This document shows positions 15,341 to 52,668 of a DNA stretch of 64,000 bases, piece after piece. The notes under the pieces are model-generated. The model saw nothing but the letters and a program-made list of their open reading frames with translations. It was not told where the DNA came from and did not search any database. The stretch comes from Promethearchaeota archaeon. Lineage in GTDB: Archaea; Asgardarchaeota; Lokiarchaeia; Sigyniarchaeales; SOKP01. The translations under genes were made by a program, and so were the position numbers. The DNA lies in assembly GCA_019057795.1 (NCBI GenBank), contig JAHLWS010000078.1, positions 138,857 through 202,856 of the forward strand, in the 5' to 3' direction. How positions within the stretch are numbered: position 1 is the first letter of the stretch; each line of letters begins with the position of its first letter.

Positions 15341-15398
15341 TTTGTTCTTTATAAATAACTGTGATAATTGTCTAGTAAATAATTTAAAACAATAAATT
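15341..15398 (+). promoter_or_regulatory. conserved cassette leader/promoter (TATA-like box + CTxTxATAATT + TAGTAAA + AATAAATT-ATG)
   Basis: Same blocks lie upstream of all three ~203-aa ORFs (also 48634-48691 and reverse strand 34721-34772). Confidence 0.7.
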
Positions 15399-16013
15399 AT
15401 GACGGACAATATTGAAGAACATTATATTGAATCAGAATATGAAGAAATTTTTAATGATTGGTATGAAATTGAGGGCGCAAGAAAAATAAAAGAACTTTCA
15501 CGCCAACTCCGAACTTTTTTCAATTACAAGACAGAATTAATAAGATATCGATTTCGATCCAGTCCAAATCTTGCCGAAAATTATACAAATAATAAATTTT
15601 TTGCTCAAAAACAAAAGATTGAATCATTATCTGATGAATTTATAACCCTTTTAAAAAAAATTAAGAAACATAGACAATCCCTTGAACAAGTAATTCGTTC
15701 TCTATTTTTTAATAATAATAAAACAGTATTAAACAAACTTTCAGAAATCACAGAGAAGTTGTCCATTCTACTCCACTATTTCTCAGAGGAATGCATTCAT
15801 GATCATCCAAGATTCCTCAAATTCATCGTTGTATTAGCACAAAACATTTGTTTGGTGAAAATGTGCTTGTATGCTGAATTCAGCGAATTTTATGGGGAAC
15901 TTGAAGTTAACTACAATGGTTTAAATGGAGAAATGGAGATAATATTAGAAGAAACGCTAGGAGATAAAATTAAAAAAACAAAAAATCAACTTGAGGAGAG
16001 ATTGAGGATATGA
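15399..16013 (+). CDS. cassette ORF A (conserved ~203-aa helical protein, unknown function)
   Basis: IFNDWYEIEG.RKIKELSRQLRTFFNY shared with 34112-34720 and 48692-49303; ATGA overlap with next gene. Confidence 0.85.
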   Translation: MTDNIEEHYIESEYEEIFNDWYEIEGARKIKELSRQLRTFFNYKTELIRYRFRSSPNLAENYTNNKFFAQKQKIESLSDEFITLLKKIKKHRQSLEQVIRSLFFNNNKTVLNKLSEITEKLSILLHYFSEECIHDHPRFLKFIVVLAQNICLVKMCLYAEFSEFYGELEVNYNGLNGEMEIILEETLGDKIKKTKNQLEERLRI

Positions 16014-18427
16014 AGGCATACACAAATGTATCACGGAAAACAGTGGAAGAGGATCGAGTAGCAGTCTGCCCAAATTTTGGGTGTGAGTTTATGACACGAG
16101 TTAAACCACTTAAGTTAAAGTTCTTAGGTTTTAGTAAGCATCCTAAATGCAAGAAACATCACATCCCTTTAGTTTACATAGATGAAAGGATCGGGGATTT
16201 CGTGGATGCTGCATTAGTATGCTTGTTTGATAAAGCAGGACTCCCACCACGTGAATTACTCGAGGGAGTAAAATCAAAATTCCCCAATGAAATTACCTCG
16301 TTTATAGAAGGATGGGTGTATAGCATCACGGTTGGAAGGGGAGCTCCCATTGTATCACGTTACATGGATGCCGTTTCGAATGCATATCTCAAGCAATTAA
16401 CCAAAAAACAGATAAAATCATTGAAAAAAGGAAATAATTCAAAACCAAATCTCGTGAAAAAAGCAATTAAGGATGGTCTGGATGAAATTGCACTTCAATA
16501 TACAAGACTACTTAAGCATCTTAGAGCCCATTCCGAGATCCTCATTGATCATCAAAGACTTAAATCACTTTCAAGAAGTCTCCAAAATTATTTGAATGAT
16601 TGGCATAAGGATATTTTAAAGTATAATGAAATCATAATTTTCTCAGAAAATAAGCAAGAAATGACTTTAAAAGATATCAAGTGCAAATATGATCAAATTC
16701 TTAATGTTGGCACCTGTCGATGCCTTCTTGGATTAAATCCAGAAAGTAAAAAAATTAAGAAAACAAAATTAACTGCGTTTGATCGGTTTTCCGCTTATAT
16801 AGAATTTTTTTCTGAAAGTATTACTGAAAAATTTACTAAGTCCGATATTAAAGGACTTAACTCAGATATTAATCCAATTAAAAAGTCAATAAAAAAAATG
16901 AAATCGTACGATAATTTTGAAAGTGGTAATAGTCAAAAGATTAAGGAATATTTAAAAAATCTTGATTGGGAGAATTTAACTAACAATTGGACATTATTAC
17001 ATAGAGAACATCATACACATCCTTACAAGGAAATTCTGCTTGATCCTCATAAAGATCCTTCCAATGAAAATCCTTTATGGAAACACGAAATTTGGTTGAA
17101 GCGAGTTTATGCTGATGAAAATTATAATTTTTCAGATAGTCTTATTTCTCGAATCACTGGTATTGCTCGCGACACAGTCAGAAAATACCGTAGGAAATTT
17201 AATATTAGCAATGGCTACTACAACACGACTCAAAAACCAAAACTTAGTAAAGAATTGATTGAGAAAAGGGAGAAAATTCGCAATTTTAATTGGAACATTA
17301 ATATTGATTGGATGATACCCGTCGGGATTCATGGAGATTTGTCAATTCTTAACCCAAACAAATATTGTAGTTTTGATAATCCTTTATACAAGCATAAGCT
17401 ATGGTTAAAAAGAGTCTACGAAGATGAAGAGCTTGATTTGAATGGAGTTGAGATTGCCAAAATATGCAGTCTTAAAGATCAGAAACCTATTAGTTATTGG
17501 AGAAAAAGATTAGGGATACCTAAAAAAAGAAAAGGTATTTTTCTAAATAAGTCAGGACATAAGTTGGTTCTCACTCCAAATTCCTATATACACCCTCAGC
17601 GTGGTAGACTCTATCAACGTGCTGAACATACACTAATCATGGAAAGATATTTAAATAAAAATCTATCAAGACGCCAATTAGCAACACATCCGGATTTGAT
17701 TCAGGGATGGTTAGGAGAAGAGGAGTATTTTTATATAAAAAAAGATTGTCATGTTCACCATATCAATTTTGTAGGTTTAGATAATAGAATCGAGAATCTT
17801 TGGTTATTTTCAAGTAATCGCGCACATGGATTAGTGGTTAATGAGCTACATCAATGCCTTTCAATTTTGATTAAGTTACATCAAATATTTTTTAAAGAGG
17901 GCATGTATTTTCTAAATGAAGATTTTGATTGTCTTCAGTTAGAAAGAGATGATATTCGGAGTAAGTTAAATCTTAATATTGTAATAAACCACTCTCTCTC
18001 TCGATTTTATGATAAGCGAAGAAATTCTTTTAGTGTAGCGATGTCTGCCTCCTATAACAATCCCTTTATTTCTCCAAAAAAAGGAATTGATTATGTTTAT
18101 ATGTATGAACATAGATATATCATCGAGCAATATTTTAGGACGCTTTTAAGAAAAGAGACTATATTACTAGAGGAGCACATTGATTATCAAAAAGCTCAAG
18201 AATTCATAAATCCACAAGGGTTTTTAAAACCCGATGCTATCGTGCACCATGTAAATTTCGATTCTCGAGATAATCGGTTATTAAATTTATATGTGTGTGA
18301 AATTTCTGAACATAGGCTTGTTCATGGATTAATTTACCAATTAGTCGAAAGATTACTTGATATGGGATTGATATATTTCAGTAATGGGAAATATTTTTTG
18401 GATAACACTTTGACTAATAAAATGTGA
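16010..18427 (+). CDS. cassette ORF B: conserved 280-aa N-domain + two HTH-like repeats + two HNH nuclease domains
   Basis: MKAYTNVSRKTV...CPNFGC...CKKHH N-domain; HVHHINFVGLDNRIENL and IVHHVNFDSRDNRLLNL HNH motifs, each preceded by EH.L/Y.IxE. Confidence 0.85.
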   Translation: MKAYTNVSRKTVEEDRVAVCPNFGCEFMTRVKPLKLKFLGFSKHPKCKKHHIPLVYIDERIGDFVDAALVCLFDKAGLPPRELLEGVKSKFPNEITSFIEGWVYSITVGRGAPIVSRYMDAVSNAYLKQLTKKQIKSLKKGNNSKPNLVKKAIKDGLDEIALQYTRLLKHLRAHSEILIDHQRLKSLSRSLQNYLNDWHKDILKYNEIIIFSENKQEMTLKDIKCKYDQILNVGTCRCLLGLNPESKKIKKTKLTAFDRFSAYIEFFSESITEKFTKSDIKGLNSDINPIKKSIKKMKSYDNFESGNSQKIKEYLKNLDWENLTNNWTLLHREHHTHPYKEILLDPHKDPSNENPLWKHEIWLKRVYADENYNFSDSLISRITGIARDTVRKYRRKFNISNGYYNTTQKPKLSKELIEKREKIRNFNWNINIDWMIPVGIHGDLSILNPNKYCSFDNPLYKHKLWLKRVYEDEELDLNGVEIAKICSLKDQKPISYWRKRLGIPKKRKGIFLNKSGHKLVLTPNSYIHPQRGRLYQRAEHTLIMERYLNKNLSRRQLATHPDLIQGWLGEEEYFYIKKDCHVHHINFVGLDNRIENLWLFSSNRAHGLVVNELHQCLSILIKLHQIFFKEGMYFLNEDFDCLQLERDDIRSKLNLNIVINHSLSRFYDKRRNSFSVAMSASYNNPFISPKKGIDYVYMYEHRYIIEQYFRTLLRKETILLEEHIDYQKAQEFINPQGFLKPDAIVHHVNFDSRDNRLLNLYVCEISEHRLVHGLIYQLVERLLDMGLIYFSNGKYFLDNTLTNKM

Positions 18428-18465
18428 TTTCTTATTTCTATCATCACATTGGATTAATATTTTAA

Positions 18466-18561
18466 TTAATCGAATACAATACTATTTCTAATTTAAGCGC
18501 TATCGAAGATTACGATTTAATAACCGCATAAATACGAGAATTATTAACTCGTGAGATGTAA
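18466..18561 (+). pseudogene. orphan diverged 3' end of the 14670-15272 gene
   Basis: LIEYNTISNLSAIEDYDLITA*IRELLTREM* vs KVEYIHISNLSSIEDYDLITDKIRELLY* (20/26 identical); no start, one in-frame stop. Confidence 0.85.
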
Positions 18562-18603
18562 TCCATCTATAAAATGCGGATTAGATAAAGTTTGAATAGT
18601 ATG

Positions 18604-18698
18604 TATTATATAAAGATATTATATTGATTCATTAAAATACAAAGAATTAATTATTTAAATTTAATTGATTAATTAAAATACAAAGAATTAATTATACA
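18604..18698 (+). repeat. direct repeats, right copies (tandem), including TTATATAAA TATA-like box upstream of 18743
   Basis: See 15262-15315. Confidence 0.85.
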
Positions 18699-18742
18699 GA
18701 GTTTTATATTATTTTTAATTAAAAATTTGGAGCGTATGAACA

Positions 18743-19558
18743 ATGGCTAAGAAGAAAAAATTTTTGATGATGCCTGTAATTCATTCAAAGTTTAACGATA
18801 AAACTCTCGAGAATATACTAATCAATAAATCGAGAACTCTCTTAACAGAAAAGAAGGGTGCTGTCCCCTCGTTTATTTTTCTTTCTGGAAGTTTTTTTGA
18901 TGTAAAAGGTTTTGTATACACGGGGCTTCGAGCATGGAAGGGTGCAGTAAAACCATCAAATAGCGATGAAGGTAGAAGGCCATTACTTGAAGCTACTTTC
19001 GCTTCTCTTTCAGTTTATCTAAGTTCATTACTTGCTCTACAAGCAGATTTTTACTTCGCTTACGAAGAGATCAAAGACATATTATTAGAAAAGAAAAGGG
19101 AAGATCTATGGACTATTGTATCAGAAAAATTACCATTTATTTCACTCCCTCCAAAAGAAATGTATGGAAGCCAAGTTTCGCCAATATCTCCATACTTTGT
19201 AATCGAACAAGATGATGAACTCATATTAGGGGAGATATATCCATCGGCTTATTTAACAAAAGTTATCTCTTCTATTAAGACCAGATTTTTCGTGTTTTTC
19301 CAGTATCAAGGATATTCCGCTTTTGGATTTTTCGATTCTTTACCTAAACATGCTAAGTTTGGTTTTGAGGAAAAAGCGAGAGAGTTTGAAGAAGAACCTA
19401 CATCAGAAAACCTACAAAAGTATGCTAATAATGCTAAAAATTTAAAAGAAGTTCTAATCGCGCTCATCGAAGCGCATAATAATGCGTATTTAGGACAGTA
19501 TTTAATTGAGGATTACGAACTCCTATTAAATAAACTACTAGAATCGGAGGACCTATAA
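18743..19558 (+). CDS. hypothetical protein, probably co-transcribed with small GTPase
   Basis: 271-aa ORF ending 1 nt before the GTPase start. Confidence 0.75.
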   Translation: MAKKKKFLMMPVIHSKFNDKTLENILINKSRTLLTEKKGAVPSFIFLSGSFFDVKGFVYTGLRAWKGAVKPSNSDEGRRPLLEATFASLSVYLSSLLALQADFYFAYEEIKDILLEKKREDLWTIVSEKLPFISLPPKEMYGSQVSPISPYFVIEQDDELILGEIYPSAYLTKVISSIKTRFFVFFQYQGYSAFGFFDSLPKHAKFGFEEKAREFEEEPTSENLQKYANNAKNLKEVLIALIEAHNNAYLGQYLIEDYELLLNKLLESEDL

Positions 19559-19559
19559 A

Positions 19560-20192: not shown

Positions 20193-20314
20193 CCAGTTTA
20201 AGTGGCATGGTAGAATCTCTGATCTTTTTCTGGAATTTGCGGGACTCTTCTTCGATTTTTCATTGTTCTCTGATTCTTCTGGAAATGGGGGCTAAAACCC
20301 CGAAATTTTTCTTT

Positions 20315-22708: not shown

Positions 22709-22824
22709 AAGAGAGTCACATTTACCTTTTTTAGGTTCTTAATACAAAATATTTTTAACATATTTAAAAAAAAAATTAGAAAGAATTAATTAAAATTATA
22801 AATCAGAATTTAGATCAGATTAAA

Positions 22825-23682: not shown

Positions 23683-24333
23683 TCAAATATATAATGTATT
23701 AGTATTTTTTTCATATTTTATTTTGCCTAACTGGAGTAGGTGCAAAAGATATACAAAATATTCGTAGACTTTAATTTGATCTAGCTCATCATCAAAGACA
23801 TCTTCAAAATAACATGGTAGTTTTTCTTTAATTTTATTAAAGAATAACGTCATTTTTTCAGTAAATTTATATTTTGGAATTTCTAATAAAAATTGGTCGT
23901 CTATTTTTCCTTTTTTCAAATGCTTAATCTCTAATTCTATTATTCTTTCTTTACAATAACGCTCTGAAGCGTATTCCAAGAAATTTAGCGACATTCCATC
24001 CAAGTAAAAAACTTTCCTCCAACACCCTTTAAAAATTTCGTATATCTCCTCGTCCTCAGGATGACCCTTCATAAATTCAAAGAACTTTTCATCAATATTT
24101 AAAGAACTGAGTAATTTCTTTAATTCCTCGAATTTTTCGTTGAGTAATTCGCACACATTTTTGTAGGTTAAGGAATAATTTTCGATGTTGAAAATACTAA
24201 GTGAATCTTTTAGTTCATGAAATAGAGGATTTAATTCTAATTCTAACAAGGAAGTTTTACCTGAAAGAATGTCATCCTTAATAATTTCGATCTTTTTATT
24301 TAATTCCTCTGATAAATCTATATTTTCTGTCAT
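23683..24333 (-). CDS. ScpA/kleisin-like SMC accessory protein
   Basis: C-terminal YFVYLLHLLQLGKIKY resembles the kleisin C-terminal wH; ATGA overlap with SMC. Confidence 0.65.
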   Translation of the reverse strand: MTENIDLSEELNKKIEIIKDDILSGKTSLLELELNPLFHELKDSLSIFNIENYSLTYKNVCELLNEKFEELKKLLSSLNIDEKFFEFMKGHPEDEEIYEIFKGCWRKVFYLDGMSLNFLEYASERYCKERIIELEIKHLKKGKIDDQFLLEIPKYKFTEKMTLFFNKIKEKLPCYFEDVFDDELDQIKVYEYFVYLLHLLQLGKIKYEKNTNTLYI

Positions 24334-27300
24334 TTGCTTTCTTTCACAATTTTAGGATTGAAAATTGTCGATACTTCGTTTTTGCCAACTCTGGCGACTC
24401 CAATTAACTTATCGGCAAGTAAATATAATGGATTTGAAGATTTTGGTAGAAATATTAACATTTGAATAGCATTCTGCTCAATCGTTGTTTTTATCATTTG
24501 ATACGAAGCTTCAGAATTCTTTTCGTCTAAAAACATTCCTGCCTCGTCAAACATACATAATGGCGAGGGTTTTATCTCTTGAAGCGATAAAATTAAGCTA
24601 ATAGAAATCATCGAAATTTGACCTCCACTTAAGGCGGTACAAGATTTTAATTTATCCTTAGAGATGGCGGCTTTAATATCTATTCCCAATTCTTCAAAAT
24701 TTCCTATTAAATCCAGAGTACAATATGCTTTAATGTTTGCGGAAATAAATTTTTGATTAATTTTTAAATTTAAGTCTTTTAATACTAATTTAAATTTGTT
24801 GTAATATGTTTCTTCAAGTTTATTTTCAGTTTTAATCGCAGCTTTTATATCTCTTTCTATGTCTTTCTGATTTTTAGTGATTTCTTTTAACCCCGTTAAA
24901 ATCTGTTCCTTTTCTACTAAAATCGAATCATCAACATCTAAATAATTCAACAACTTTTTGTCGATAATTAGAATGTCCTGGTTAATTTCCTCTATTGAGC
25001 GAATAGACATTTTTTTTTCTGAAATTAAGGGACCTATTTCAGAATTGATGCGTTCTAAATCGTTTTTCTTTGCTCCCAATTCAAGTTTTATAGAAGATAG
25101 CTTGAAATTTTCTTGCTCCAAGCTTAATTTTAGTTGAATATGCATTTTATCGATTTCGCTCTTATCTTTATAAAATGCAATTTTTTGGTCTTGTAAACTT
25201 AAGATAATAGCGTCAACCTTGTTAATTTCATCATCAATAGCGTCTAATTTTCTATAAATTTCAAATGCTTTTTTATCTGAGTTTTTGAAATTTACTTTTT
25301 TTGAATCGAAATCTTTTTTTAATATTCTTAATTCGTTTTTATGGGGGTTTATCCTTACATCAATATCTTTTAACGTTCCTAGATTGCCATCTAATTTCGT
25401 ATCCCATTTTTTTAAATCATTATTTAGATTGTTTAATTCGATAGGAATTTCCTTTATCCTTTCGTTCCATTTAAAAAATTCGGGTTCTTTTTGCGATTCT
25501 AACTCGTTTATTTTTTTTACTATATCTTCAATTTTCTCGTTTGTCTCTGTAATATTTTGTTCTAGTGAATAAACTAAATTATAAAACTGATTTTTTTTTG
25601 AAGTCAGTCTTTCTTTTTGTTTGAAATTGTATAAAAGGTCGTTAAACGATTCTTTTTTCCTGAAAATCTCGCCTTGCAACTTATCTATCTGAGATTGTTT
25701 TACTTTTAACTCTAAAATGTTATCGTTTAGCGATTCAATTTCTTTTTCCAAGAGGTTTGATTGTTCTTTTTGAGTTCCTGGACTTAATAACCCTTTAAGC
25801 CGTCTTATAAATGGACTTTCGTATGCGTATTTGTATGATATAATTTGTTTTCCTTTTAAAGTCACACACTTACCTTTGAAATTATGTATTCTATAAAGAT
25901 CTTTTGCAGAGAGGTAATCCCTGACAACAACACAATTTTTAATTTTTGAATAAATGACTTTTTGGACGTCTAAATCACCGCCAACAACTTTAATTAATTC
26001 CGCTAAATAGCCAATTACGCCCTGCGCCATAATCTTTGGTAATGGAGCAACTCTGACATCCTTAGGTATATATATGTTGCAATAAGCATTATATTTCTTT
26101 TTTAACTTCTCTACTAAATTTAGAGTATCCCAATCGTTCGCAATAAAGCTATTAAGTAACCTTTCTCCCAAAACTGATTCAATAGCATAGCTTAACTCGT
26201 CGTCGTATTTTAAATATTCAATTATTGGTCCTTTAACTCTATCGTCTAGTTCTCTTTTCTTAATTTCCTCTTTAAGAATGTTAATATTAGCTGAAAGAAC
26301 AATTTTACGTTCTCTTAACGCAGTTTGGAGTAACTTGAATTTTATAATTTTTTTTGTTTTTTCATATTCTAACTGTTCCACTTCAGATATTAATTTAAAT
26401 AAGCTTACGGTTACTTTCTTAAGGTCTTTATCGAGTTGGGTCAACAAATCTTTTGTAGGGTTTTCTAAAAACCACCTATTCTTTTCTAGTTTGTAATCTA
26501 TGTCACTCAAACTCTGAAAAATATCATTGATGTCTCTTTTAATATTTTTAATATTGTTTTCATTGTCTTGGATTTTCCTGACATTATTTTCCTTTTCATA
26601 GGTTAACTGGTTATATTTTTCTAAAAAATCTTGATTCTCTTTAATCTTTATCGTAATTTCATTTTGTTCTTTAATTAAATTATCAATTTTGCTTTTAATT
26701 GAAATTTTCTTCTTTTTAACTATGTCGATCTCACTTATTATGTTTTGCCTCTGCTTCTCTAGCTTATCTATTACTTTTTCATATTCAGAGATTTTTCCAG
26801 ATAAGATGTCTAATTCTTGCTTTGCTTTTATTTTTTCATTTTGCCACGCATCTATTTTTTTAACTAATTCTTTTTTTCTGTAATTTAATTCTCCTACTTT
26901 TTTTGATGAACTAATAAGGTTGCTATCTATTTCAGAAATCTTTCTCTCTTTTTCTTTAATTAAATTTTGATACTTGTCAATTTCATTGGTAATTAAATTT
27001 ATTTGATCTTGACTTTTTTTAACATTTAACTCGAGAACTTCAATTTCTTTCTGAAGCATGCTCTTATTTGCCCATAATAGTTCATCGTTATACTTTTTTC
27101 TAATTTCGAGTAATTCCTTTTTCTCATCTAATCGTTCTAATTTTGGTATTAAGAAGTCGAGGTTTATATTTAAAGAGTTTTTCCGGGTAATTAAAGATTT
27201 AAACTCTGTGTTTAATGTAAATACGCTATTTTTTTGTTGTAAAATCTCCTCTCGTAAACCTTTAAGCCCCATTCCCTCTTCTAAAAAGGAACAGAGTTCG

Positions 27301-27824
27301 ATGGGTTTTAAGCTTTTAATAGTATCGATTTTGCCTTGACTTACAAAGGCAAATTGATTATCTGGATTAATTTCTAACTTTGACACAAGTTTTTGAATTT
27401 CAATTGCGTGAACCTTTTTGAAATTCTTATCATTTTTTAACTGAATCTCAAAAGATGGAGATTTTCCTCTTATTACTGTCCTTCTTATTTTAACTACTTC
27501 ATTATGGTATTGAATATGAAGTTCCACCATAGCGTGATTTTGCCCATCTCTTATAAAATCAGACCATTTCTTATAACGCTCGTCTCTTTCGTTACTACCT
27601 AAAGCAAACTTAATTGCTTGAAAAATTGATGTCTTCCCGCTCCAATTCGGACCGATTATTAAAATAAAGCGAGGTATATCTTGATTTTTCCGAATCAAGA
27701 AATCTACTTCGTCTCTTTGAAAAGATAAGAAATTCTCTAAAATAACTTTACGGATAAAAACACTATTTTTTATCGCTTGACTTTTATCGTTTTCCTTAAC
27801 TTTTTTTATAGAAGAAACAGCCGT
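24330..27824 (-). CDS. smc: SMC-family ATPase (SMC5/6-like)
   Basis: N-terminal FIRKVILENFLSF lies upstream of the track start (frame open to 27830; candidate ACG start at 27824); Walker A GPNWSGKT, INPDNQFAFVSQ, coiled coils, hinge GPIIEYL, LSGGQ, MFDEAG. Confidence 0.9.
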   Translation of the reverse strand, partial: TAVSSIKKVKENDKSQAIKNSVFIRKVILENFLSFQRDEVDFLIRKNQDIPRFILIIGPNWSGKTSIFQAIKFALGSNERDERYKKWSDFIRDGQNHAMVELHIQYHNEVVKIRRTVIRGKSPSFEIQLKNDKNFKKVHAIEIQKLVSKLEINPDNQFAFVSQGKIDTIKSLKPIELCSFLEEGMGLKGLREEILQQKNSVFTLNTEFKSLITRKNSLNINLDFLIPKLERLDEKKELLEIRKKYNDELLWANKSMLQKEIEVLELNVKKSQDQINLITNEIDKYQNLIKEKERKISEIDSNLISSSKKVGELNYRKKELVKKIDAWQNEKIKAKQELDILSGKISEYEKVIDKLEKQRQNIISEIDIVKKKKISIKSKIDNLIKEQNEITIKIKENQDFLEKYNQLTYEKENNVRKIQDNENNIKNIKRDINDIFQSLSDIDYKLEKNRWFLENPTKDLLTQLDKDLKKVTVSLFKLISEVEQLEYEKTKKIIKFKLLQTALRERKIVLSANINILKEEIKKRELDDRVKGPIIEYLKYDDELSYAIESVLGERLLNSFIANDWDTLNLVEKLKKKYNAYCNIYIPKDVRVAPLPKIMAQGVIGYLAELIKVVGGDLDVQKVIYSKIKNCVVVRDYLSAKDLYRIHNFKGKCVTLKGKQIISYKYAYESPFIRRLKGLLSPGTQKEQSNLLEKEIESLNDNILELKVKQSQIDKLQGEIFRKKESFNDLLYNFKQKERLTSKKNQFYNLVYSLEQNITETNEKIEDIVKKINELESQKEPEFFKWNERIKEIPIELNNLNNDLKKWDTKLDGNLGTLKDIDVRINPHKNELRILKKDFDSKKVNFKNSDKKAFEIYRKLDAIDDEINKVDAIILSLQDQKIAFYKDKSEIDKMHIQLKLSLEQENFKLSSIKLELGAKKNDLERINSEIGPLISEKKMSIRSIEEINQDILIIDKKLLNYLDVDDSILVEKEQILTGLKEITKNQKDIERDIKAAIKTENKLEETYYNKFKLVLKDLNLKINQKFISANIKAYCTLDLIGNFEELGIDIKAAISKDKLKSCTALSGGQISMISISLILSLQEIKPSPLCMFDEAGMFLDEKNSEASYQMIKTTIEQNAIQMLIFLPKSSNPLYLLADKLIGVARVGKNEVSTIFNPKIVKESK

Positions 27825-30387: not shown

Positions 30388-31474
30388 ATGAAATCAGAAG
30401 AACCAAAAGAAGAATCAAAAAAAATTAGTTATTTTGAAAAACTTCTTCCGTTATGGGTCGCATTATGTATAATAGCGGGCATTATTCTTTCTCAGCTCAT
30501 CCCTGAAATAAGCGAAGCTATTAATTCTTTACAAATAGGAGGAATTTCTATTCCCATTGGAATCTGCTTATTCCTGATGATGTATCCCGCTATGTTGAAT
30601 CTTCAATTTTCTGAGTTGAAAAAATTAGGTAAAAACCCAAAACCAATTATATTAACGCTTATATCTAATTGGGTCGTTGCTCCTTTCGTAGGGTTAGCAA
30701 TGGCAAACATTTTTTTACCTGGATATGAACAGTTAATAGTTGCAATCATTCTTCTAAGTTCAAGCCCATGTACTGCTATGGTCCTAATCTGGGGCTGGAT
30801 GGCAAGAGGGAATCAAGAACAAAATGTAATTAATACTAGTTTAAATACGATAACTATCATAATCGGTTATGTCCCTTTAGTCGCATTATTAACAGGCATT
30901 AAAAATATTCCTATAGATATCTTTCTTTTGTTGATTTCTTTGGTGTTTTTTATAGGAGTACCATTATTATTGGGTATAGTTAGTAAAAAAATTATTATTT
31001 CAATAAAAGGAGATGCTTGGTTTAACGATGTCTATAGACCAATTGTAGGAAAAGTTTCGATTGTAGCACTATTAACGACTTTAATTGTTCTTTTTTCCCT
31101 AAATGGAACTGTCTTGATAAATAATCCTGATCTGTTGCTCTTAATTTCTATACCTCTTTTAGTGGGATTTGTAATTGTTGTTAGTTTTAATATATTAATT
31201 ACAAAACTCTTTAAGTTGAGATATGAGGAAGCTGTTATTACGGTTATAATAGGGTCTTCAAGTCATTTTGAAATAGCTATTGCTACTGCGATTGCTATGT
31301 ATGGGATTGGCTCTATTGCGGCATTAGGAACTACCATGGGACTATACGATTCTTAGTTTTACTATGAACGGGTCATTCTGGGAAGTTCCTGTGATGCTAT
31401 CGATTGTATATTTGGGAGGATACTTAGGAAAACGAGGATTTTGGGAGAGTTCAAAGAGTAGGATTGAGAAATAA
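30388..31474 (+). CDS. acr3: Acr3 arsenite efflux transporter, join(30388..31345,31377..31474), 351 aa if spliced
   Basis: MMYP, NWVVAPF, SPCTAMV, SSHFEIAIA; conserved C-terminal EVPVML helix lies beyond a 31-nt insertion containing a stop. Confidence 0.9.
31346..31376 (+). other. putative bulge-helix-bulge (EndA-type) intron in acr3 mRNA
   Basis: 4-bp helix GACT(31340-43)/GGTC(31371-74), 3-nt bulges ATA and ATT, inner hairpin, outer stem AGGAACT/AGTTCCT; canonical cuts give GGA CTA TTC TGG GAA. Confidence 0.85.
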
Positions 31475-31556: not shown

Positions 31557-34115
31557 TTAGATAAATCTTATTATATCACCAAAAGTTTGCCTTAGCTTGT
31601 CGATTTGTTTCAGATCTCTCCAATTACATTTAGGAAGTTTTCTAAGACGATAATTATTCACTTTAAATAATTTCCTTACTTGTTGCTCAAACTCAGAATG
31701 TATGAATTCTACGTAGTTATCTCGTCTTATTGTATGATCTACAATAATATAAATATCAATATATCCACTATTTTTTAGATTTTGTTTAAAATTATCACTA
31801 GATTTTAAATGTTTATAATCGTTGGCATGGGATCCATTTCTAGGAGTTCTATGCCTGAATCTATCAACATATTCTTCTAGTGAAAAATGCTCGCGATCCC
31901 AATATTCCCCTGCAACGCTTAGAGTAAATACATCTTTTCCAATTTTTATATCGACATAAGCAAAAGCATCAAAATGCATGTGTCTATATCTCCGTAATGA
32001 TTTATAATCGCTAGGCAAAATATCAACAACCTGATCAAAAGGAAGAACTTCATATAATGAAGTTGGCCTTTCACCAAAATTCTTATGAAATAATCTTGAA
32101 AGTAAATAGCGCATTATCCTTTCATTCGTTATTTTACCTCCCGAACATATATCACATGATTTTAGATCTAAACTATAATCATCAGGTTTAGATTTAAATT
32201 TAAAACTTGGATGATACTTACAAGACCATAGAAAAACTTCTCTGGTTGGCTGTTTTAACTTCTCAATATGACTCAACGGGGTTTCCAGATTAAAATTAAA
32301 TTTATCACCCCGAGCAATTATTTGTTGGCTCGTTAATCTATGACTTTCATTATAACATTCAGCACACCAATTATTATAAGATCTAATACGTTCCATGCTA
32401 ATGCTAAATTCTCCATGTTTATTACAAATAAATGGGAACAGTATTTCTGAGACCTTTTGTTGTATATTGCGCGGTTTCTTTAATTCTTGATTTATTCGAG
32501 TTTTAAATTCAGTTTTAGTAAATTTAAATCTTGCATTTCTTAATTCCGCTTCTTTAACAAAATCTTGATATGAATGGGACTTTTCAATTCTTGAACATAG
32601 AGGACATTTAGCGCGATATAAATGTTTGTAAGCAACATTAAATTTTTCATGGTTGGAACATTTACAAGAAAGTTCAAATAATAAGTTTTCTATTAGAGTT
32701 CCTGTCAGCACAGTTTCTAAATATTCAAATATTTTCGTCTCCATATTAAGTCCTAAAGTATTGATTCTACTACAATAGGAATTCCATTTCTCAATTAAGC
32801 TAAAAACACGCTTTTCAGCACAAATTAATTTGTAATCAAGTATTAAATTAAAAAAAACAGTATAATTGCTTGGAAATTCTTGTTTCAGATTAAAAAACCA
32901 ATTATCTAAAACTTTTTCATCTATTAAGGAGTTAGGTCTCTTAAATTTATTAGATTTCAAAGTAGCGAAAGCTAAAGCTTCAGAACCATTAGATGTACCA
33001 TATAATTTCTCGGCAATTCTATTATCTGGTAAATCTTCTTGATATAATTTTATTTGTTTCACTAAATTTACAAGAAAATCTTTCGATATGGAACTACTAT
33101 TCTTTATATTTGGAAATTGATTCTTAATAAATTCCTTATAATGCTCTAAAGCTAAAACTTCGATTTTTTTGATTTTTCTTGGTCGATTTTCATTGGTTTG
33201 CTTCATGGAATCAAAACCTTCTTTTTCTTTTGGTTTACAATTTTCTAAATCCACAAATCTTTTTATAAGTTTAATCACATCAGATTTAGTAAATTTCGGA
33301 GTTAGCCCATTAGTATAAAATTCATGATATGCAGAAAATCTATCAAAAGCAGTTACCTTTGATTTCTTAATTTCTTTATTTTCAGGATTTAATCCGAGAA
33401 GGGATCTACACGTACCAATGTTTAGGATTTTATCATAATTACTCTTGATTTCTTTTAAAGTCAGTTCGGTTTTATTTTCTAACGATTTTATTACCTCAAT
33501 GCCCTTTATTATTTCTTTTTGCCATTCTTTCAAGAAATTTCGAAGGTTTTTAGAAAGCGGTTTAAGATTTTCATACTCAGAAAAGATTTTCGAATGAACT
33601 CGAAGGTGCTTAAGTATCCTCTTATATTGGATGGTTATTTCATCCATTCCATGTCTAATTGCCTTATTCACGAGATTTGGTTTAGAACTTTCTCCTTTTT
33701 TTAGTGCTTTAATCTGTTTTTTAGTCAATTGCTTGAGATATGTATTCGAAACCGAGTCCATGTAATATGAAACTATAGGAGCTCCCCTTCCTATTATGAT
33801 ACAATATACCCATCCCTCTATGAACGGGGTAGTTTCATGGGGGAATCTTGATTTTACACCCTCAATTAATTCTTGTGGAGGAAGTCCTGCTTTATCAAAC
33901 AAGCATGCTAACGCAGCATCCACGAAATCACCAATCCTTTCATTAACATAGACTAAAGGAATGTGATGTTTCTTACATTTAGGATACTTCCCAAAACCAA
34001 AAAATCTTAATTTAAGAGGTTTAACTCTAGTCATGAACTCACACCCAAAATTTGGACAGATTGCGACTCGATCTTCTCTCACTGTTTTTCGTGATACATT
34101 GGTGTATGCTTTCAT
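31557..34115 (-). CDS. cassette ORF B: conserved 280-aa N-domain + three zinc-ribbon repeats + PD-(D/E)XK/Vsr-like nuclease domain
   Basis: CSNH...CPLC, CNKH...CAEC, CKYH...CDIC; NERIMRYLL...HFDAF...AGEYW..EH. Confidence 0.8.
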   Translation of the reverse strand: MKAYTNVSRKTVREDRVAICPNFGCEFMTRVKPLKLRFFGFGKYPKCKKHHIPLVYVNERIGDFVDAALACLFDKAGLPPQELIEGVKSRFPHETTPFIEGWVYCIIIGRGAPIVSYYMDSVSNTYLKQLTKKQIKALKKGESSKPNLVNKAIRHGMDEITIQYKRILKHLRVHSKIFSEYENLKPLSKNLRNFLKEWQKEIIKGIEVIKSLENKTELTLKEIKSNYDKILNIGTCRSLLGLNPENKEIKKSKVTAFDRFSAYHEFYTNGLTPKFTKSDVIKLIKRFVDLENCKPKEKEGFDSMKQTNENRPRKIKKIEVLALEHYKEFIKNQFPNIKNSSSISKDFLVNLVKQIKLYQEDLPDNRIAEKLYGTSNGSEALAFATLKSNKFKRPNSLIDEKVLDNWFFNLKQEFPSNYTVFFNLILDYKLICAEKRVFSLIEKWNSYCSRINTLGLNMETKIFEYLETVLTGTLIENLLFELSCKCSNHEKFNVAYKHLYRAKCPLCSRIEKSHSYQDFVKEAELRNARFKFTKTEFKTRINQELKKPRNIQQKVSEILFPFICNKHGEFSISMERIRSYNNWCAECYNESHRLTSQQIIARGDKFNFNLETPLSHIEKLKQPTREVFLWSCKYHPSFKFKSKPDDYSLDLKSCDICSGGKITNERIMRYLLSRLFHKNFGERPTSLYEVLPFDQVVDILPSDYKSLRRYRHMHFDAFAYVDIKIGKDVFTLSVAGEYWDREHFSLEEYVDRFRHRTPRNGSHANDYKHLKSSDNFKQNLKNSGYIDIYIIVDHTIRRDNYVEFIHSEFEQQVRKLFKVNNYRLRKLPKCNWRDLKQIDKLRQTFGDIIRFI

Positions 34116-34720: not shown

Positions 34721-34825
34721 AATTTATTAACATCTTTTACTAACCAATTATCACAGATATATTTAAATAAAAAAGTGAGTTGAGAAAAGCGGACAATGCC
34801 TTTATATAATATCATAATTAGATAA

Positions 34826-34947: not shown

Positions 34948-35028
34948 TTGATTGAAGTACCTGTGATGTTATCCATAGTTTACTTAGGAAGATATCTTAA
35001 AAAGCGAGGATTTTGGAAATCCAATTGA
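34948..35028 (+). pseudogene. orphan diverged 3' end of acr3
   Basis: LIEVPVMLSIVYLGRYLKKRGFWKSN* vs exon 2 FWEVPVMLSIVYLGGYLGKRGFWES; 19/21 aa identical, 10 synonymous codon differences. Confidence 0.9.
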
Positions 35029-44734: not shown

Positions 44735-44745
44735 GGTGATAAAAA

Positions 44746-46092: not shown

Positions 46093-46172
46093 ATTCTTAC
46101 TCATTTTCTTTCAAAAATAAATTAAAATGAAAGGATGTAAAATTAATATAATTAAAATAGAAGGTTTGAAAA

Positions 46173-47858: not shown

Positions 47859-47954
47859 TCTGAGATATTACCCAACTCTTACATTTTATAACTATTTTTA
47901 TTTTAACAATTTATTTTTTAATTAAACCAATTTTTTCATTTCTACTCTTATATT

Positions 47955-48545
47955 ATGAATGTAGACGAAATACTTTCAGCTGTAAGAACTTTCGCATATA
48001 ATAATTCTGAAAATGACGATCTCCATGGTTTTAAACATGTTGAGCGAGTACTTAATTTATGTGTGCAAATAGGGACTGCTTTAAATGCGAATTTATTAGC
48101 AATTAAAATAGCTGCCTTACTTCACGATGTTGGTAGAATTCATGAGAAAAAAAATGCTGCAAAGAATCACGCTGAGTTATCCGCTGAAATGGCTGAAAAA
48201 TTTTTACAAAAAACTAACTTCAATATTAACATTGACGATATTGAAAATATTATTCACAGCATTCGAGCGCATTCTTTTTCGAATAAAATAAAACCTACAA
48301 CTCTTGAAGCAAAAATATTGTCGGACGCAGATAAACTAGACACGCTTGGAGCAATAGGTTTATACAGGACAATTATATATTCATTTAAATTGAAAAATGG
48401 TGGAATAGAGAAAGTAATTGAACATTTAGAAAAAAAAATAATAAAATTAAAAGATCGAATGTATTTAGACATTTCAAAAGAAATAGCAAAAGAAAGACAG
48501 AAAATTATCTTAGATTTTTATTATGAAATAAAAAAGGAAGTGTAA
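47955..48545 (+). CDS. HD-domain phosphohydrolase (host gene of cassette 3)
   Basis: HGFKHVERV, LLHDVG, HAELSA, SDADKLD..GAIG. Confidence 0.9.
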   Translation: MNVDEILSAVRTFAYNNSENDDLHGFKHVERVLNLCVQIGTALNANLLAIKIAALLHDVGRIHEKKNAAKNHAELSAEMAEKFLQKTNFNINIDDIENIIHSIRAHSFSNKIKPTTLEAKILSDADKLDTLGAIGLYRTIIYSFKLKNGGIEKVIEHLEKKIIKLKDRMYLDISKEIAKERQKIILDFYYEIKKEV

Positions 48546-48691
48546 TATCTAAATTTTTATACTTTTTTGAAAACCACCTTCATTTTTCTTTCCTTTCAAG
48601 TCCTATATTCGAACATAAAACTTCTTGTCACAATTTGTTCTTTAAATATAACTATCATAATTAGGTAGTAAAAGAATTATGATAATAAATT

Positions 48692-49303
48692 ATGACAAAC
48701 TATATTGAAGATTCTTATATTGGATCAGAATATGATGATATTTTTAATGATTGGTATGAAATTGAGGGCGCAAGAAAAATAAAGGAACTTTCACGCCAAC
48801 TCCGAACTTTTTTCAATTATAAGGCTGAAGTAATAAGATATCGATTTCGACCCAGTCCGAATCTTGCCGAAAATGATACAAACACTAAATATTACAGTCG
48901 AAAGCAAGAAACTGAATCATTAACTCGTGAATTCATAATCTTGTTAAAAAAGCTTAAGAAAAATGGACAAACACTTGAGCAAGGGATTCAATCTCTCTTT
49001 ATTTTCAATGATAAAGCACATTTTAATAAACTTTCAGCCATAACTGAGAAATTATCCATGTTACTTCACTATTTTTCAGAAGAAAGCCTTTACATTCATC
49101 CTAAATTTCTCAAATTTAGCGTGACATTAGCACAACACCTTTGTTTAGTGAAAAAATGCTTGAATGCGCAATTTAGCGAATTTTTTGAGGAACTTGAAAT
49201 AAATTACAACAATTTAGAAGAAGAACTTGAAGACTTAATCGAAATCACGCCAATTAAGAAGCAAAAATTAAAAAAGCAACTTGAGGAGAGATTAACTTCA
49301 TGA
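48692..49303 (+). CDS. cassette ORF A
   Basis: Paralogue of 15399-16013 and 34112-34720; ATGA overlap with ORF B. Confidence 0.85.
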   Translation: MTNYIEDSYIGSEYDDIFNDWYEIEGARKIKELSRQLRTFFNYKAEVIRYRFRPSPNLAENDTNTKYYSRKQETESLTREFIILLKKLKKNGQTLEQGIQSLFIFNDKAHFNKLSAITEKLSMLLHYFSEESLYIHPKFLKFSVTLAQHLCLVKKCLNAQFSEFFEELEINYNNLEEELEDLIEITPIKKQKLKKQLEERLTS

Positions 49304-52300
49304 AAGCATACACAAACGTATCACGGAAAACCGTGGGAGAGGATCGAGTAGCAATCTGCCCTAATTTTGGATGCGAGTACATGACACGAGTTAAGCCTCT
49401 TAAATTTAAGTTCTTAGGTTTTGGGAAGCATCCTAAATGCAAGAAACATCACATTCCTTTAGTATTTGTTGATGAAAGAATCGTTGATTTCGTGGATGCT
49501 GCCCTAGCGTGCTTGTTTGATAAAGCAGGACTCCCCCCAAGTGAATTACTCGAGGGTGTAAAATCAAAATTTCATAATGAAGTTACCTCGCTTGTAGAAG
49601 GATGGGTGTATTGCATCACGGCTGGAAGGTGTGTGTCCATTATTTCACGTTACATGGATACGATTTCTAATGCGTATCTCAAGCAATTAACTAAGAAACA
49701 AATTAAGGCACTTAAAAAGGGAGATGATTCAAAACCAAATCTCGTGAATAAGACGATTAAGGGTGGAATTGATGAAATTACTATTCAATATACGAGGATT
49801 CTCAAGCACCTGAGAGCTCATTCCGAGATTCTCATTGATCATCAAACGCTTAAATCACTTTCTAAAAACCTCCGAAATTATTTGAAGGATTATCAAAAGA
49901 CCATATTAAAGCGCAATGAGATCATTAATTCTCCAGAAAATAAGCGCGAAATGAGTTTAAAAGAAATCAAGAGTAATTATGATCAAATCCTAAACGTTGG
50001 GACATGCCGTTGTCTTCTTGGATTGAATCCCGAAAGTAAAGGAATCAAGAAAGCAAAAATAACTTCATTTGATAGATTTTCTGCTTATCTTGAATTTTTT
50101 AGTGAAGGATTAACTGGAAAATTTACAAAATCCGCAATCTGTGATTTAGTAAAAACTAAGTTCACTTATCAAGATAATATTGATATACTTGATGAGACAA
50201 AATATAAAATACCCTTTCAAAATCAAAAACCTAAAAGTATCATGACAGTTAAATGCACTCAAGAAGAACTTCTAGGCAAAATTTTTAAGTTCGGGGAATC
50301 TCTACAATTAGGAATTTTAACGATATATTATATTTGTGATATATTTCCAAAAAAGAATGAAATTGATAAGTTATTTTTTTCTGGAAAGGAATTAAGTCAG
50401 ATTCTTAGCAGATCAGAATATTTTTTTAATAATATTAGAAGGGAACTGTTAGACGAAAATTTTGTTCAATACTGCGGAACAATTTCTAAAAAAAAACATA
50501 GCTTTGTAAAAATTTATACAATTACAAAACAAGGCGCAGATTTTGCAGCGGAAATTATTGAGTCAAAAATACAAGAATTTTCTAATCTTTTTAATGATTT
50601 AACCCTCAGATTAGAACAGCGATATAAAGAATTAATGTCCTCAGAAAATAACATTGTTATTCGTTCAATAGAAGAAATCAACAATGATTTAAAAAAAAAA
50701 GCTGAAGAAAACAATGCTAAAATGCTCACTACATACAAATCTGATGAAAATAAAATAATTTTTAGATGTAAGGGATGCAATAAAGAATTTAAAGATATAT
50801 ACAAGAATATGAAAAGAAGACAAGAACCAAAAATAGCTTGCCCTTTCTGTTTTCCAGAATTAAGACCTAACACTTATATTCCTGAAGAATTAAGAGAAAA
50901 AATAGCAAAATATGTTTTAGTTGAATTAAGACAAATTACTATTTACAATTTAGTAGAAAAGGAAATTTTAGAAAATATAGTTTCTATAAGAGATTCTGTT
51001 TTCAGACAAATAGAAATCAAAAAGGTTCCGATTTTAGACAATAGAATTCAAGCTGATGCCGATTTTAGACAATATATTAAGAATTATATTCAACTTATCG
51101 TTAAGCTTCTTATAAAAATAAAATTATTAAATGAGACCAAACAAAAAATAAATATTACTGAAGTAGCAAAAGAAACTTATGATAAAAATATAGTTTCCTT
51201 AAAATCTTGGGTGGTTTTTTCAACGAAGATTATTCAGTATTTAAGACAAAATCTTGATTTTAATATTAGATCACGTTATCATGATACATTCCAAAAATCT
51301 ACTCAAGTATCGATTAGGAATTTTAGGAATTTGTATAAATTAATTGATGATATTACAATTACTTATTTGAAAAAAGATTTACAGATGAAAATAGATATTC
51401 ATTACAATGGAATATGTCAAGGAAATAATGGAACTTGTCAATTCAATATTGATTACAGATTCTTACCTGCTCTCTCCCATCACCATCTACTCAAAAGTTA
51501 CAAAAAACTCATAACAAGAAAAGAATTTAAATATATCCTTCCTCATACTATTCTAAACTTAAAATTTGAGAGAGCTATTAAATTAATGCAGACTCAAATT
51601 GGTGGATTAGGTTTAGCATGTCTGAATTGCCATTTTTCTAAACATCATGTAATATATAATTTTTCACCGATTTTTACATTTCTTCAGAAACTATCCTTAG
51701 AAAATATCAATGAAAATCCATTAGATGTTTTAATCAAATTGAAGTCATTAGTAAGCATATATTACAACCAAAAAAAAGAAAAAACTAAAATGTCTAAAAA
51801 TTACACTCAAGCTCAACAAAAAACAATGATAAAAGATGGTATTAGAAAATCGACTTTAGCATTCGTTAAAAAAAAATATAGTATTCAGTTTCTATTTGGA
51901 AATGATTATGTTTGTCCTATTTGTCGAAAAGCTAATATTAATGAACACCTCAATTGTTTTGTTGCTCATCATACTAATGAAGATATTTTTAGAGATGATC
52001 TTGAGAAAATAGAATTTGGTAAAGAATATAAAAAAAAGGATATTGATTGGTTAATTGAAAATCTAATTATTCAAGAATGTGTGTTTATTTGTATAAATTG
52101 TCATCAAATGCTTCATGCTGTAAATTTTCGAGATTATGCTCTTACTATCTTGGAAAGTAAAACCGATGAGATATTTGTAAGGAATTATTATAGTCAATTA
52201 GACAAACAGATAAGTAAATTAAAAAATAGAATCTTAATTTTAAAAAAAAAAATTGAAAATCATTTGATTCAAATTCCAAATCCGTTACAGTTAATTTTTG

Positions 52301-52668
52301 AAAAGGGAGACGGTTTAAAGAGAAATTTAATATGTATTTACTATATTTGTGAAATTTTTTCAAAAGATAAAGAGAATCCTTTCTTTACTTCTGGTGAGTT
52401 GAATTTTATTATTAATAAGGTGCGTTCATTTAGGAATTTTAAACATAAATTAATTCATCTTGATTATATACAAGCTGTTGAGAATTTTCAAAGAATTTAT
52501 CATATTACTCCTAAAGGTAAGGAAAAAGCAAGAGAATTGATTAATCAAAAATTAAATGATTTTCCGAAAAGATTCAGAGATTTAATTGATATTTGGGAAA
52601 ATAATTACGTAAAATATCAGCTAAAGATGAAACAAAATAAGTATTTTTTTGGAAAAGAAATTTTATAA
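49300..52668 (+). CDS. cassette ORF B: conserved 280-aa N-domain + two winged-helix-like repeats, zinc ribbon and two Cys-rich HNH-like domains
   Basis: IYYIC.IF...FF...EL...Y.IT..G twice; CKGC...CPFC; C..C...HH...CLNCH...H and CPIC...AHH...CINCHQMLH. Confidence 0.8.
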   Translation: MKAYTNVSRKTVGEDRVAICPNFGCEYMTRVKPLKFKFLGFGKHPKCKKHHIPLVFVDERIVDFVDAALACLFDKAGLPPSELLEGVKSKFHNEVTSLVEGWVYCITAGRCVSIISRYMDTISNAYLKQLTKKQIKALKKGDDSKPNLVNKTIKGGIDEITIQYTRILKHLRAHSEILIDHQTLKSLSKNLRNYLKDYQKTILKRNEIINSPENKREMSLKEIKSNYDQILNVGTCRCLLGLNPESKGIKKAKITSFDRFSAYLEFFSEGLTGKFTKSAICDLVKTKFTYQDNIDILDETKYKIPFQNQKPKSIMTVKCTQEELLGKIFKFGESLQLGILTIYYICDIFPKKNEIDKLFFSGKELSQILSRSEYFFNNIRRELLDENFVQYCGTISKKKHSFVKIYTITKQGADFAAEIIESKIQEFSNLFNDLTLRLEQRYKELMSSENNIVIRSIEEINNDLKKKAEENNAKMLTTYKSDENKIIFRCKGCNKEFKDIYKNMKRRQEPKIACPFCFPELRPNTYIPEELREKIAKYVLVELRQITIYNLVEKEILENIVSIRDSVFRQIEIKKVPILDNRIQADADFRQYIKNYIQLIVKLLIKIKLLNETKQKINITEVAKETYDKNIVSLKSWVVFSTKIIQYLRQNLDFNIRSRYHDTFQKSTQVSIRNFRNLYKLIDDITITYLKKDLQMKIDIHYNGICQGNNGTCQFNIDYRFLPALSHHHLLKSYKKLITRKEFKYILPHTILNLKFERAIKLMQTQIGGLGLACLNCHFSKHHVIYNFSPIFTFLQKLSLENINENPLDVLIKLKSLVSIYYNQKKEKTKMSKNYTQAQQKTMIKDGIRKSTLAFVKKKYSIQFLFGNDYVCPICRKANINEHLNCFVAHHTNEDIFRDDLEKIEFGKEYKKKDIDWLIENLIIQECVFICINCHQMLHAVNFRDYALTILESKTDEIFVRNYYSQLDKQISKLKNRILILKKKIENHLIQIPNPLQLIFEKGDGLKRNLICIYYICEIFSKDKENPFFTSGELNFIINKVRSFRNFKHKLIHLDYIQAVENFQRIYHITPKGKEKARELINQKLNDFPKRFRDLIDIWENNYVKYQLKMKQNKYFFGKEIL

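Follow-up and report, generated by a model that had tools for sequence, protein, structure and literature searches.

What kind of element is a two-gene cassette that occurs three times in one stretch of archaeal chromosome, each time with the same first gene and the same N-terminal domain in the second gene, and each time with a different C-terminus? The question is raised by a 64,000-nucleotide (nt) stretch of a Lokiarchaeial genome (the window, to which all coordinates refer). The source genome is designated G000 here, and the other G numbers denote related genomes. We consider it probable that the cassettes are mobile elements of the free-standing homing-endonuclease type, equipped with a novel constant core of two proteins. 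Mobility of the homing type is proposed because the cassettes are insertion polymorphisms with a native copy of the target on one side and a foreign copy on the other. Endonuclease domains of homing families (HNH_3, LAGLIDADG_3 and a PHROG homing endonuclease) are found in family members.

The cassettes and their family

Each of the three window cassettes consists of an open reading frame (ORF) A of about 203 amino acids (aa) followed by ORF B, with the stop of A and the start of B overlapping as ATGA in all three. Cassette 1 lies on the plus strand (ORF A, 15399-16013, 204 aa; ORF B, 16010-18427, 805 aa), as does cassette 3 (48692-49303, 203 aa; 49300-52668, 1122 aa); cassette 2 lies on the minus strand (34112-34720, 202 aa; 31557-34115, 852 aa). 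The ORF A proteins share 66-67% pairwise identity. The N-terminal domains of ORF B (N-domains; 16010-16849, +; 33276-34115, -; 49300-50139, +) share 72-79% over 280 codons with zero gaps. Codon 280 ends at 16849, 33276, and 50139, and past KFTKS the ORF B sequences are unalignable, DNA and protein alike. Upstream, conservation begins ~62 nt 5′ of the ORF A ATG, at a TATA-like box, TTTAAATA, and holds in 39 cassettes from G000 and related genomes. Because similarity starts at this box and runs through the leader in all 39, the leader (15337-15398, +; 34721-34782, -; 48630-48691, +) is read as an archaeal-type promoter with a short 5′ untranslated region, forming the left edge of the conserved unit. 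In each cassette, a self-contained operon under its own TATA-box promoter, ORF A is translationally coupled to ORF B.

The variable part of ORF B1 (16850-18427, +) combines helix-turn-helix (HTH)-like segments with two HNH_3 nuclease motifs (Pfam, 3e-9; several PHROG HNH families also match). That of ORF B2 (31557-33275, -) contains three treble-clef-like Cys/His fingers and a putative DUF559/Vsr-like nuclease. It has no family match in Pfam (up to E=5) or by phmmer against the PDB, and its tail was linked to DUF4379/DUF559 clusters by a language-model search alone (0.93). That of ORF B3 (50140-52668, +) contains winged-helix (wH)/HTH-like segments, a zinc ribbon, and two Cys-rich HNH-like motifs (CxxC...HH...CxxCH), for which a PHROG HNH match at 4.5e-4 gives weak support. 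It clusters with its G042 orthologue and with the paralogue P0010, which is matched at 1.5e-12; HNH PHROG matches occur in both P0006 and P0010.

A tblastn search of the whole assembly found six A+B pairs in G000: the three in the window, one at 16 kb upstream on the same contig (C78), one on C54, and one on C41. The upstream C78 copy encodes a Cys-rich double HNH, as in B3. The C54 copy (P0012) carries a two-motif LAGLIDADG domain (LAGLIDADG_3, 2e-8 in Pfam; endonuclease, 8e-25 in PHROGs; "HEase," 1e-7 in PADLOC), and the C41 copy (P0014) a GIY-YIG-type "homing endonuclease" (PHROG, 5e-7) with an array of HTH modules. Among 81 C-termini of the family, Pfam identified LAGLIDADG_3 in 10, HNH_3 in 7, GIY-YIG in 5, DUF4379 in 5, an intein in 2, RNase_T in 1, and HTH or wH domains in many; about half have no Pfam match. 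Two C-termini stand out in their composition. P0020 (like G004:C54) contains a whole intein, with the splicing domain enclosing LAGLIDADG_3, and the C-terminal end of P0022 (like G050:C71) is an RNase T/DEDD exonuclease domain.

An N-domain profile run against 1.84 billion representative proteins retrieved 104 clusters. Full-length members carry the N-domain at the extreme N-terminus, with 250-870 (once 1650) residues after it. ORF A is represented by 343 clusters at 90% identity, and every named cluster is a hypothetical protein from Promethearchaeota/Lokiarchaeota. In a survey of the genus, 20 of 42 genomes contain the N-domain, with 0-9 copies per genome, and many of the 22 genomes that lack it are 99-100% complete. 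Beyond the genus, 1 of 16 genomes of the order contains a distant copy (1919 aa; G037:C436, 25-6410, -), with the N-domain at the protein start. A 209-codon stop-to-stop frame precedes that gene; it resembles ORF A in size and position and is not recognized by the A profile. Near its C-terminus, the 1919-aa protein has a weak phage tail-chaperone-like match. The family appears to be restricted to one Lokiarchaeial genus and its near kin. The pairing of A with B does not arise by chance, since there are six pairs in G000 and the family occurs in 20 of 42 genomes of the genus.

These results largely bear out a preliminary description of the locus. It had reported the ATGA overlap, a shared leader of about 60 bp (62 bp here), and 280 gap-free codons followed by unrelated sequence, all of which hold in the three window copies. 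Its proposal that a constant core is combined with swappable nucleases is supported by the Pfam classes across the 81 C-termini, and the larger genomic family that it foresaw exists in G000 and in the genus. The double HNH that it assigned to copy 1 stands. The Cys-rich HNH-like reading of copy 3 is weakly supported, and the PD-(D/E)XK-like reading of copy 2 has found no family match and is now a language-model lead. Another ATGA-coupled pair in the window (23683-27698, -) was considered as a fourth member and rejected as unrelated: it encodes an SMC-like ATPase of 1122 aa with a TTG start, along with a ScpA/kleisin-like protein of 216 aa.

Occupancy and flanking target copies

All three window cassettes are polymorphic insertions whose sites are cleanly empty in relatives. 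For cassette 1, empty sites occur in G020, G008, G048, G052, G011, G044, G056, and others, and filled ones in G042, G050, and G041. In the empty sites, the two flanking host genes are joined directly, and the same ~79 nt aligns to both G000 junctions. The cassette 2 site is empty in G008, with filled alleles in G042 and G005; for cassette 3, G051 and G050 have empty sites and G042 and G020 filled ones. Contig C40 of G008 is syntenic with the window and lacks all three cassettes; the single family copy of that genome lies elsewhere. The cassettes are not clustered in an island, and each stands alone between housekeeping genes. Some copies have decayed. The G020 orthologue of cassette 3 (G020:C160, about 5095-6323) has lost 190 bp and acquired a premature TAA in the N-domain, an internal TAA splits ORF B at G007:C1:76171-77019, and broken or partial copies are also present in G011 and G023. 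Together with the 22 of 42 genomes without any copy, these broken copies are signs of a cycle of invasion, decay, and loss, in which intact copies are still under purifying selection.

The inserted segments contain little besides the two genes. In all six G000 copies, the stretch from the B stop to the next host gene is free of ORFs of at least 80 aa, so that no immunity ORF follows, and the Pfam scan and the ORF list revealed no transposase, integrase/recombinase domain, or extra ORF. The cassettes have no terminal inverted repeats, only weak scattered inverted repeats. No identical att core was found: the flanking repeats are 75-78% identical and share no exact core beyond 12 nt. Rfam and tRNA scans found no tRNA target or known RNA in the window. 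Cassette-end joints that would mark circular or excised forms were absent from the contigs of four sediment runs, although contigs are a poor test. The preliminary description had likewise seen no immunity ORF, transposase, or integrase, and it had named two findings that would overturn its view. Neither was made: occupancy varies, so that the cassettes are not syntenic and fixed across relatives, and no characterized family in the libraries searched matches ORF A or the N-domain.

The window cassettes are flanked by imperfect direct duplications of 63-190 nt, whose length differs at each site. At cassette 1, 15192-15266 corresponds to 18472-18546 (75 nt, 75%) and 15262-15320 to 18604-18662 (59 nt, 93%). 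At cassette 2, 31382-31444 corresponds to 34954-35016 (63 nt, 78%), and at cassette 3, 48393-48539 corresponds to 52690-52836 (147 nt, 75%). The duplication covers the final 21-49 codons of the host gene, which encodes a 200-aa protein (cassette 1), an SBF/ACR3-type transporter (cassette 2), or an HD-domain protein (cassette 3). Differences between the copies are largely synonymous or conservative (at cassette 1, 10 codons synonymous, 4 nonsynonymous, and 1 stop). Since they are mostly synonymous, both copies have evolved as coding sequence in diverged genomes, the second copy having once served as a gene end in such a genome.

The copies differ in their origin. The left, gene-attached copy at cassette 1 (15192-15320, +) comprises the last ~25 codons of the 200-aa gene (15192-15266) and a conserved intergenic element (15262-15320). 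It is 98-99% identical to its closest relatives, G020 (empty) and G042, and ~76 nt of empty-site DNA is deleted between the gene end and the element. The right copy (18468-18703, +) comprises a pseudo 3′ end of the 200-aa gene that is interrupted by a TAA, a spacer, and the intergenic element, partly doubled at 18645-18703. Over 195 nt, it is 90-91% identical to the empty sites of G008, G048, G011, G004, G056, and G052 and 73% identical to that of the close relative G020, and the flanking genes of the G008-group genomes are only about 80% identical to those of G000. Cassette 3 is the reverse of cassette 1. Its displaced right copy (52690-52839, +), with a frame open to its own stop, is native, being 94% and 87% identical to the gene ends of G051 and G050 (both empty). 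The replacement 3′ end attached to the HD-domain gene (48393-48545, +) is 77-78% identical to G051/G050, yet 100% and 99% identical in the filled G042 and G020 alleles. At cassette 2, the replacement 3′ end attached to the transporter gene (31382-31474, +) has the element-specific tail ESSKSRIEK-stop, found only in the filled alleles of G042 and G005, and the displaced native-like 3′ end (34954-35028, +; EVPVMLSIVYLGRYLKKRGFWKSN-stop) is continuous with native-like downstream DNA. The order at cassettes 2 and 3 is therefore host gene, foreign replacement end, nuclease gene, and stranded native end. Both target copies also deviate from the empty site, by the 76-nt deletion in the left copy of cassette 1 and by 22-25% divergence in the others. 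At each cassette, one copy is thus native and the other foreign, as in co-conversion of donor flank DNA. Assembly chimerism is an unlikely source of the foreign flanks, because the same structures recur in the independent assemblies of G042 and G020.

Three further observations concern the flanks. The 59-nt intergenic element (15262-15320 and 18604-18703, and the empty sites of relatives) lies 5′ of a 271-aa gene at 18743, contains TATTGATTAATTAAAATACAAAGAATTAATTATACA and the palindrome TTAATTAA, and is more conserved across the genus than the neighboring coding DNA. It probably includes the promoter of the 271-aa gene, and it is a candidate nuclease target and/or promoter because it holds the exact insertion point of cassette 1 in G041. 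At 31343-31373 (+), about 10 nt from the cassette 2 junction, the transporter gene is interrupted by a 31-nt insert that contains an in-frame TAG and directly precedes the conserved EVPVML C-terminus. The G008 orthologue has no such insert. The RNA around it has a helix-bulge-helix-like fold (-21.7 kcal/mol, z -3.4), and the insert is probably a tRNA-type mini-intron. Two of the sediment runs (X3 and X5) were viewed over window positions 14900-18900. Summed contig depth in X3 was about 555 on the host flanks and about 37-160 inside cassette 1, and contigs that match the foreign right copy of cassette 1 continue into a G008-type host gene. These are hints that cassette-free relatives and a donor-like lineage co-occur in the same samples, with depth summed over organisms.

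The constant core and its separate history

The N-domain is predicted (pLDDT 87) to form a short zinc-ribbon hairpin of the form C-x4-C-x21-C-x2-H, with invariant C20, C25, C47, and H50, followed by a helical bundle with invariant D74, P79, K224, and Y263. It is strongly basic (pI 9.4-9.7, net charge +16 to +22) and looks cytoplasmic; the Pfam scan showed no secretion or trafficking domain, and no dedicated signal-peptide tool was applied. ORF A is predicted to be all helical (pLDDT 81), with a disordered and strongly acidic N-terminal tail. Prediction of the complex and fold searches, both proposed in the preliminary description, were carried out. ORF A is predicted to bind the N-domain, with an ipSAE of 0.78 against 0.00 for the best control, run agreement in at least 72% of contacts, and a partner pLDDT of at least 73. 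Of 80 solved complexes, 58 reached the mark, as did 2 of 110 mismatched pairs; these counts are approximate since the alignments were self-made. The predicted contacts sit on the most conserved stretches of both proteins, and the modeled interface involves residues 104-127, 153-192, and 238-244 of the N-domain and residues 25-54 and 160-181 of A.

Neither protein resembles a described family in the libraries searched. ORF A and the N-domain have no family match in Pfam, PHROGs, or PADLOC (library of 2023), in which the family matches were limited to "HEase" for the LAGLIDADG C-terminus and weak HTH matches. The best E values against PDB sequence profiles were 0.47 (N-domain) and 0.16 (A). Foldseek found nothing in the PDB for the constant parts with E up to 0.001, wide VIA-align searches gave best Z scores of 5.3 (N-domain) and 9.3 (A), both below chance level for helical bundles, and shape searches of the ESM Atlas gave TM scores of 0.25 or less. 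A missing fold match in these libraries is no proof of a new fold. Two assignments of the N-domain were considered and dropped for lack of a fold match: a TFIIB-like protein (zinc ribbon plus two helical repeats) and a tyrosine recombinase.

The core and the nuclease have separate histories. Cassettes that share a flanking host gene family have the same C-terminal class at all nine sites with at least two cassettes, and the tree of the A plus N-domain DNA is scrambled relative to site and class. Between cassette 1 of G000 and that of G042, the flanks are 95-99% identical and the C-termini 85-94%, while the N-domains are 52-70% identical; over the segment that starts in the middle of A and closes with the N-domain, identity drops to 52-80%. 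Synonymous divergence (dS) in this pair is 2.25 for the N-domain versus 0.28 for the C-terminus. The cassette 1 N-domain of G000 is 79% identical to that of cassette 3 in its own genome and 62% identical to its G042 orthologue. An orthologous pair in G004 and G008 is reversed, with a dS of 0.03-0.05 in A and the N-domain versus 0.62 in the C-terminus. The ratio of nonsynonymous to synonymous divergence (dN/dS) is 0.12-0.51 across A, the N-domain, and the C-terminus, which argues that all three are functional and under purifying selection. The discordant dS values, identities, and trees indicate that gene conversion exchanges or homogenizes the A plus N-domain module among copies and that the nuclease remains at its site. 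The breakpoints lie close to the domain border, which explains the sharp boundary at 280 codons.

The homing reading, its rivals, and known systems

A possible mechanism can be outlined for a homing element of this kind. The C-terminus combines DNA-binding modules (HTH, wH, and zinc fingers) with a nuclease of a classical homing family. In a cassette-free allele, it would recognize and cut a long site, located either within a conserved intergenic promoter or close to or at the 3′ end of a conserved host gene. Homologous recombination would repair the break from a cassette-bearing allele, so that the cassette and adjacent donor DNA are copied in. The cassette would travel with a diverged, recoded copy of the target that keeps the host gene or the promoter of its neighbor intact and presumably renders the occupied allele uncleavable. 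After fixation, copies would decay and vanish, and the family would persist by moving between species of the genus. The chimeric duplications could arise by double-strand-break repair from an allele that already bears the duplication or by single-crossover (ends-in) integration of an incoming molecule that carries the cassette and target DNA.

Several points weigh against this explanation. Flanking repeats were found by blastn in only about 10 of 35 cassettes with usable flanks in relatives, and cassette 1 of G041 is a plain insertion inside the 59-nt intergenic element; because of both findings, target duplication is frequent, not universal. The foreign copy adjoins the upstream gene at cassettes 2 and 3 but, at cassette 1, is found beyond the cassette, beside the downstream gene. 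To cover all three, a single scheme has to invoke either replacement of the promoter region of the neighboring gene or single-crossover (ends-in) integration. Cleavage of empty sites and immunity of filled ones are what we infer from the sequence, and homing needs filled and empty alleles in one cell, for which DNA exchange or polyploidy is assumed here. Many defense systems, too, are laid out as a constant, sensor-like part joined to variable nuclease effectors. The nuclease fold of copy 2 (PD-(D/E)XK-like, DUF559/Vsr-like) is a lead only. The constant core is not explained by homing, because classical free-standing homing endonucleases need neither a 280-aa extra domain nor a partner protein.

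Were the A:N-domain pair a sensor of invaders or of a cellular signal that switches on an exchangeable nuclease effector, the cassettes would be a defense or conflict system, mobile as defense genes often are. The constant part with its variable nuclease, the patchy distribution, the horizontal transfer, and the purifying selection on all parts suit this idea. It is nevertheless unlikely: A and the N-domain match no family in the 2023 PADLOC library, in which the only relevant match is "homing endonuclease" for the LAGLIDADG copy; the cassettes are scattered singly among housekeeping genes; the effectors have long-site homing architectures (LAGLIDADG, I-HmuI-like HNH_3, GIY-YIG with HTH arrays, and intein); and each cassette comes with a spare copy of its own target. 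The class of nuclease is tied to the site in nine of nine cases, a tie for which a trans-acting effector has no reason. We regard as quite improbable that the pair is instead a novel recombinase or strand-transfer machine of an integrative element, for which the C-terminus mainly targets or nicks and the repeats are att-like traces of a circular intermediate. A single crossover between circle and chromosome would yield hybrid native/foreign duplications, the strongly basic N-domain has the invariant polar residues Y263, K224, and D74 besides its zinc ligands, and a core that is otherwise unexplained would gain a role. However, it shows no likeness in fold or sequence to a recombinase, transposase, or relaxase (Foldseek, E up to 0.001; best VIA Z, 5.3). 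The repeats have no identical core and vary in length by site (63-190 nt at 75-78%), a conserved right end is lacking in the inserted DNA, the end alignment having covered the left end only, and no circular junction appeared in the sediment contigs, which is a weak test.

Two other readings carry very little weight. Polymorphic toxins for cell competition, with a constant N-terminal trafficking part and variable nuclease tips, resemble the cassettes in their constant N-terminus, hypervariable tips, and recombinational tip swapping, as in Rhs/CdiA. This is highly improbable here, as the ORF after every copy is a host gene and not an immunity gene, the accompanying small ORF is upstream and conserved instead of variable, the Pfam scan revealed neither a secretion-related domain nor a signal, the tips consist of homing-type enzymes and DNA-binding arrays, and each copy is tied to the genomic target that it duplicates. 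Ordinary paralogues, encoding cellular DNA-repair or regulatory nucleases under vertical inheritance and differential loss, would account for purifying selection and for sites that are common to distant members of the genus at about the divergence of the flanks (G041, 73% throughout). Flank DNA from another species group, clean empty sites in the closest relatives, 22 of 42 genomes without copies next to others with 7-9, decayed copies, and only about 100 clusters in 1.8 billion proteins make this origin hardly credible.

For the core of a homing element, our leading guess, held with low confidence, is a common DNA-binding or assembly/regulatory platform for otherwise unrelated nucleases. It is conceivable, if rather doubtful, that the A:N-domain heterodimer is a "homing chassis," a two-protein machine that accepts any site-specific nuclease and supplies one common step. 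Candidates for this step are holding the break ends or the nuclease domains together, recruiting the archaeal recombination machinery and so biasing repair toward copying of the cassette, and gating the nuclease through the acidic tail of A. A homing endonuclease gene is the textbook minimal selfish element, with one nuclease gene only. Recruitment of at least four unrelated nuclease superfamilies onto one constant pair implies that the pair supplies something that all of them need in this host, and hence that the picture of homing, or of nuclease control, in Asgard archaea lacks a step. If the chassis proposal were true, homing with a conserved accessory apparatus would be met here for the first time, in the archaeal lineage that is closest to eukaryotes, and the constant part could serve as a handle for programmable nuclease fusions. 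The foreign flank tracts (150-190 nt) offer direct sequence evidence of recent interspecies DNA exchange and homologous recombination in an uncultured Lokiarchaeial genus. The family also provides a natural catalogue of about 80 putative long-site nucleases, whose probable target loci are identifiable from empty sites.

Among known systems, the free-standing homing endonuclease genes of T4-like phages (seg and mob; "intronless homing") are stand-alone nuclease genes with their own expression signals, located between or at the ends of conserved genes. They encode GIY-YIG or HNH nucleases with DNA-binding modules, are polymorphic in presence and absence, and spread with co-conversion of their flanks. 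The cassettes have the same stand-alone nuclease layout, occupancy polymorphism, and co-converted flanks. They differ in sharing a 280-aa zinc-ribbon/helical domain and a coupled 200-aa partner across nuclease superfamilies, neither of which Seg or Mob has, and in residing on archaeal chromosomes instead of phage genomes. In fungal mitochondria, partial C-terminal duplications of cob and atp6 are flanked by LAGLIDADG and GIY-YIG ORFs (PMC6279837). Cassettes 2 and 3 have the same order of gene, replacement 3′ end, homing endonuclease gene, and displaced end. The hybrid atp6 gene of Allomyces is reportedly a further case. The archaeal elements lie on a chromosome and not in an organelle, the mitochondrial genes have no constant accessory module, and the foreign copy of cassette 1 restores the region 5′ of the following gene rather than a coding end.

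The NUMOD/IENR motifs are short (about 30-50 aa) DNA-binding motifs that occur in variable number across HNH, GIY-YIG, and LAGLIDADG enzymes. There, as here, unrelated homing nucleases use common accessory modules, but the cassettes have one 280-aa domain in a fixed position, with an obligate separate partner gene and no match in the Pfam, PHROG, NCBI-type, and PDB entries searched. Rhs/CdiA and swappable-effector defense proteins share with the cassettes the constant N-terminal part, the sharp recombination border, and the exchanged nuclease C-termini; the cassettes differ from them in lacking an immunity gene, a secretion domain recognized by Pfam, and a defense-island context and in having C-termini that are of homing type and tied to their sites. 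A free-standing homing nuclease gene with a target-end duplication is an already known kind of element. New, to the extent of the literature searched, are a two-protein core shared across nuclease superfamilies, the gene-conversion dynamics of that core, and its presence as a multicopy chromosomal family in Asgard archaea.

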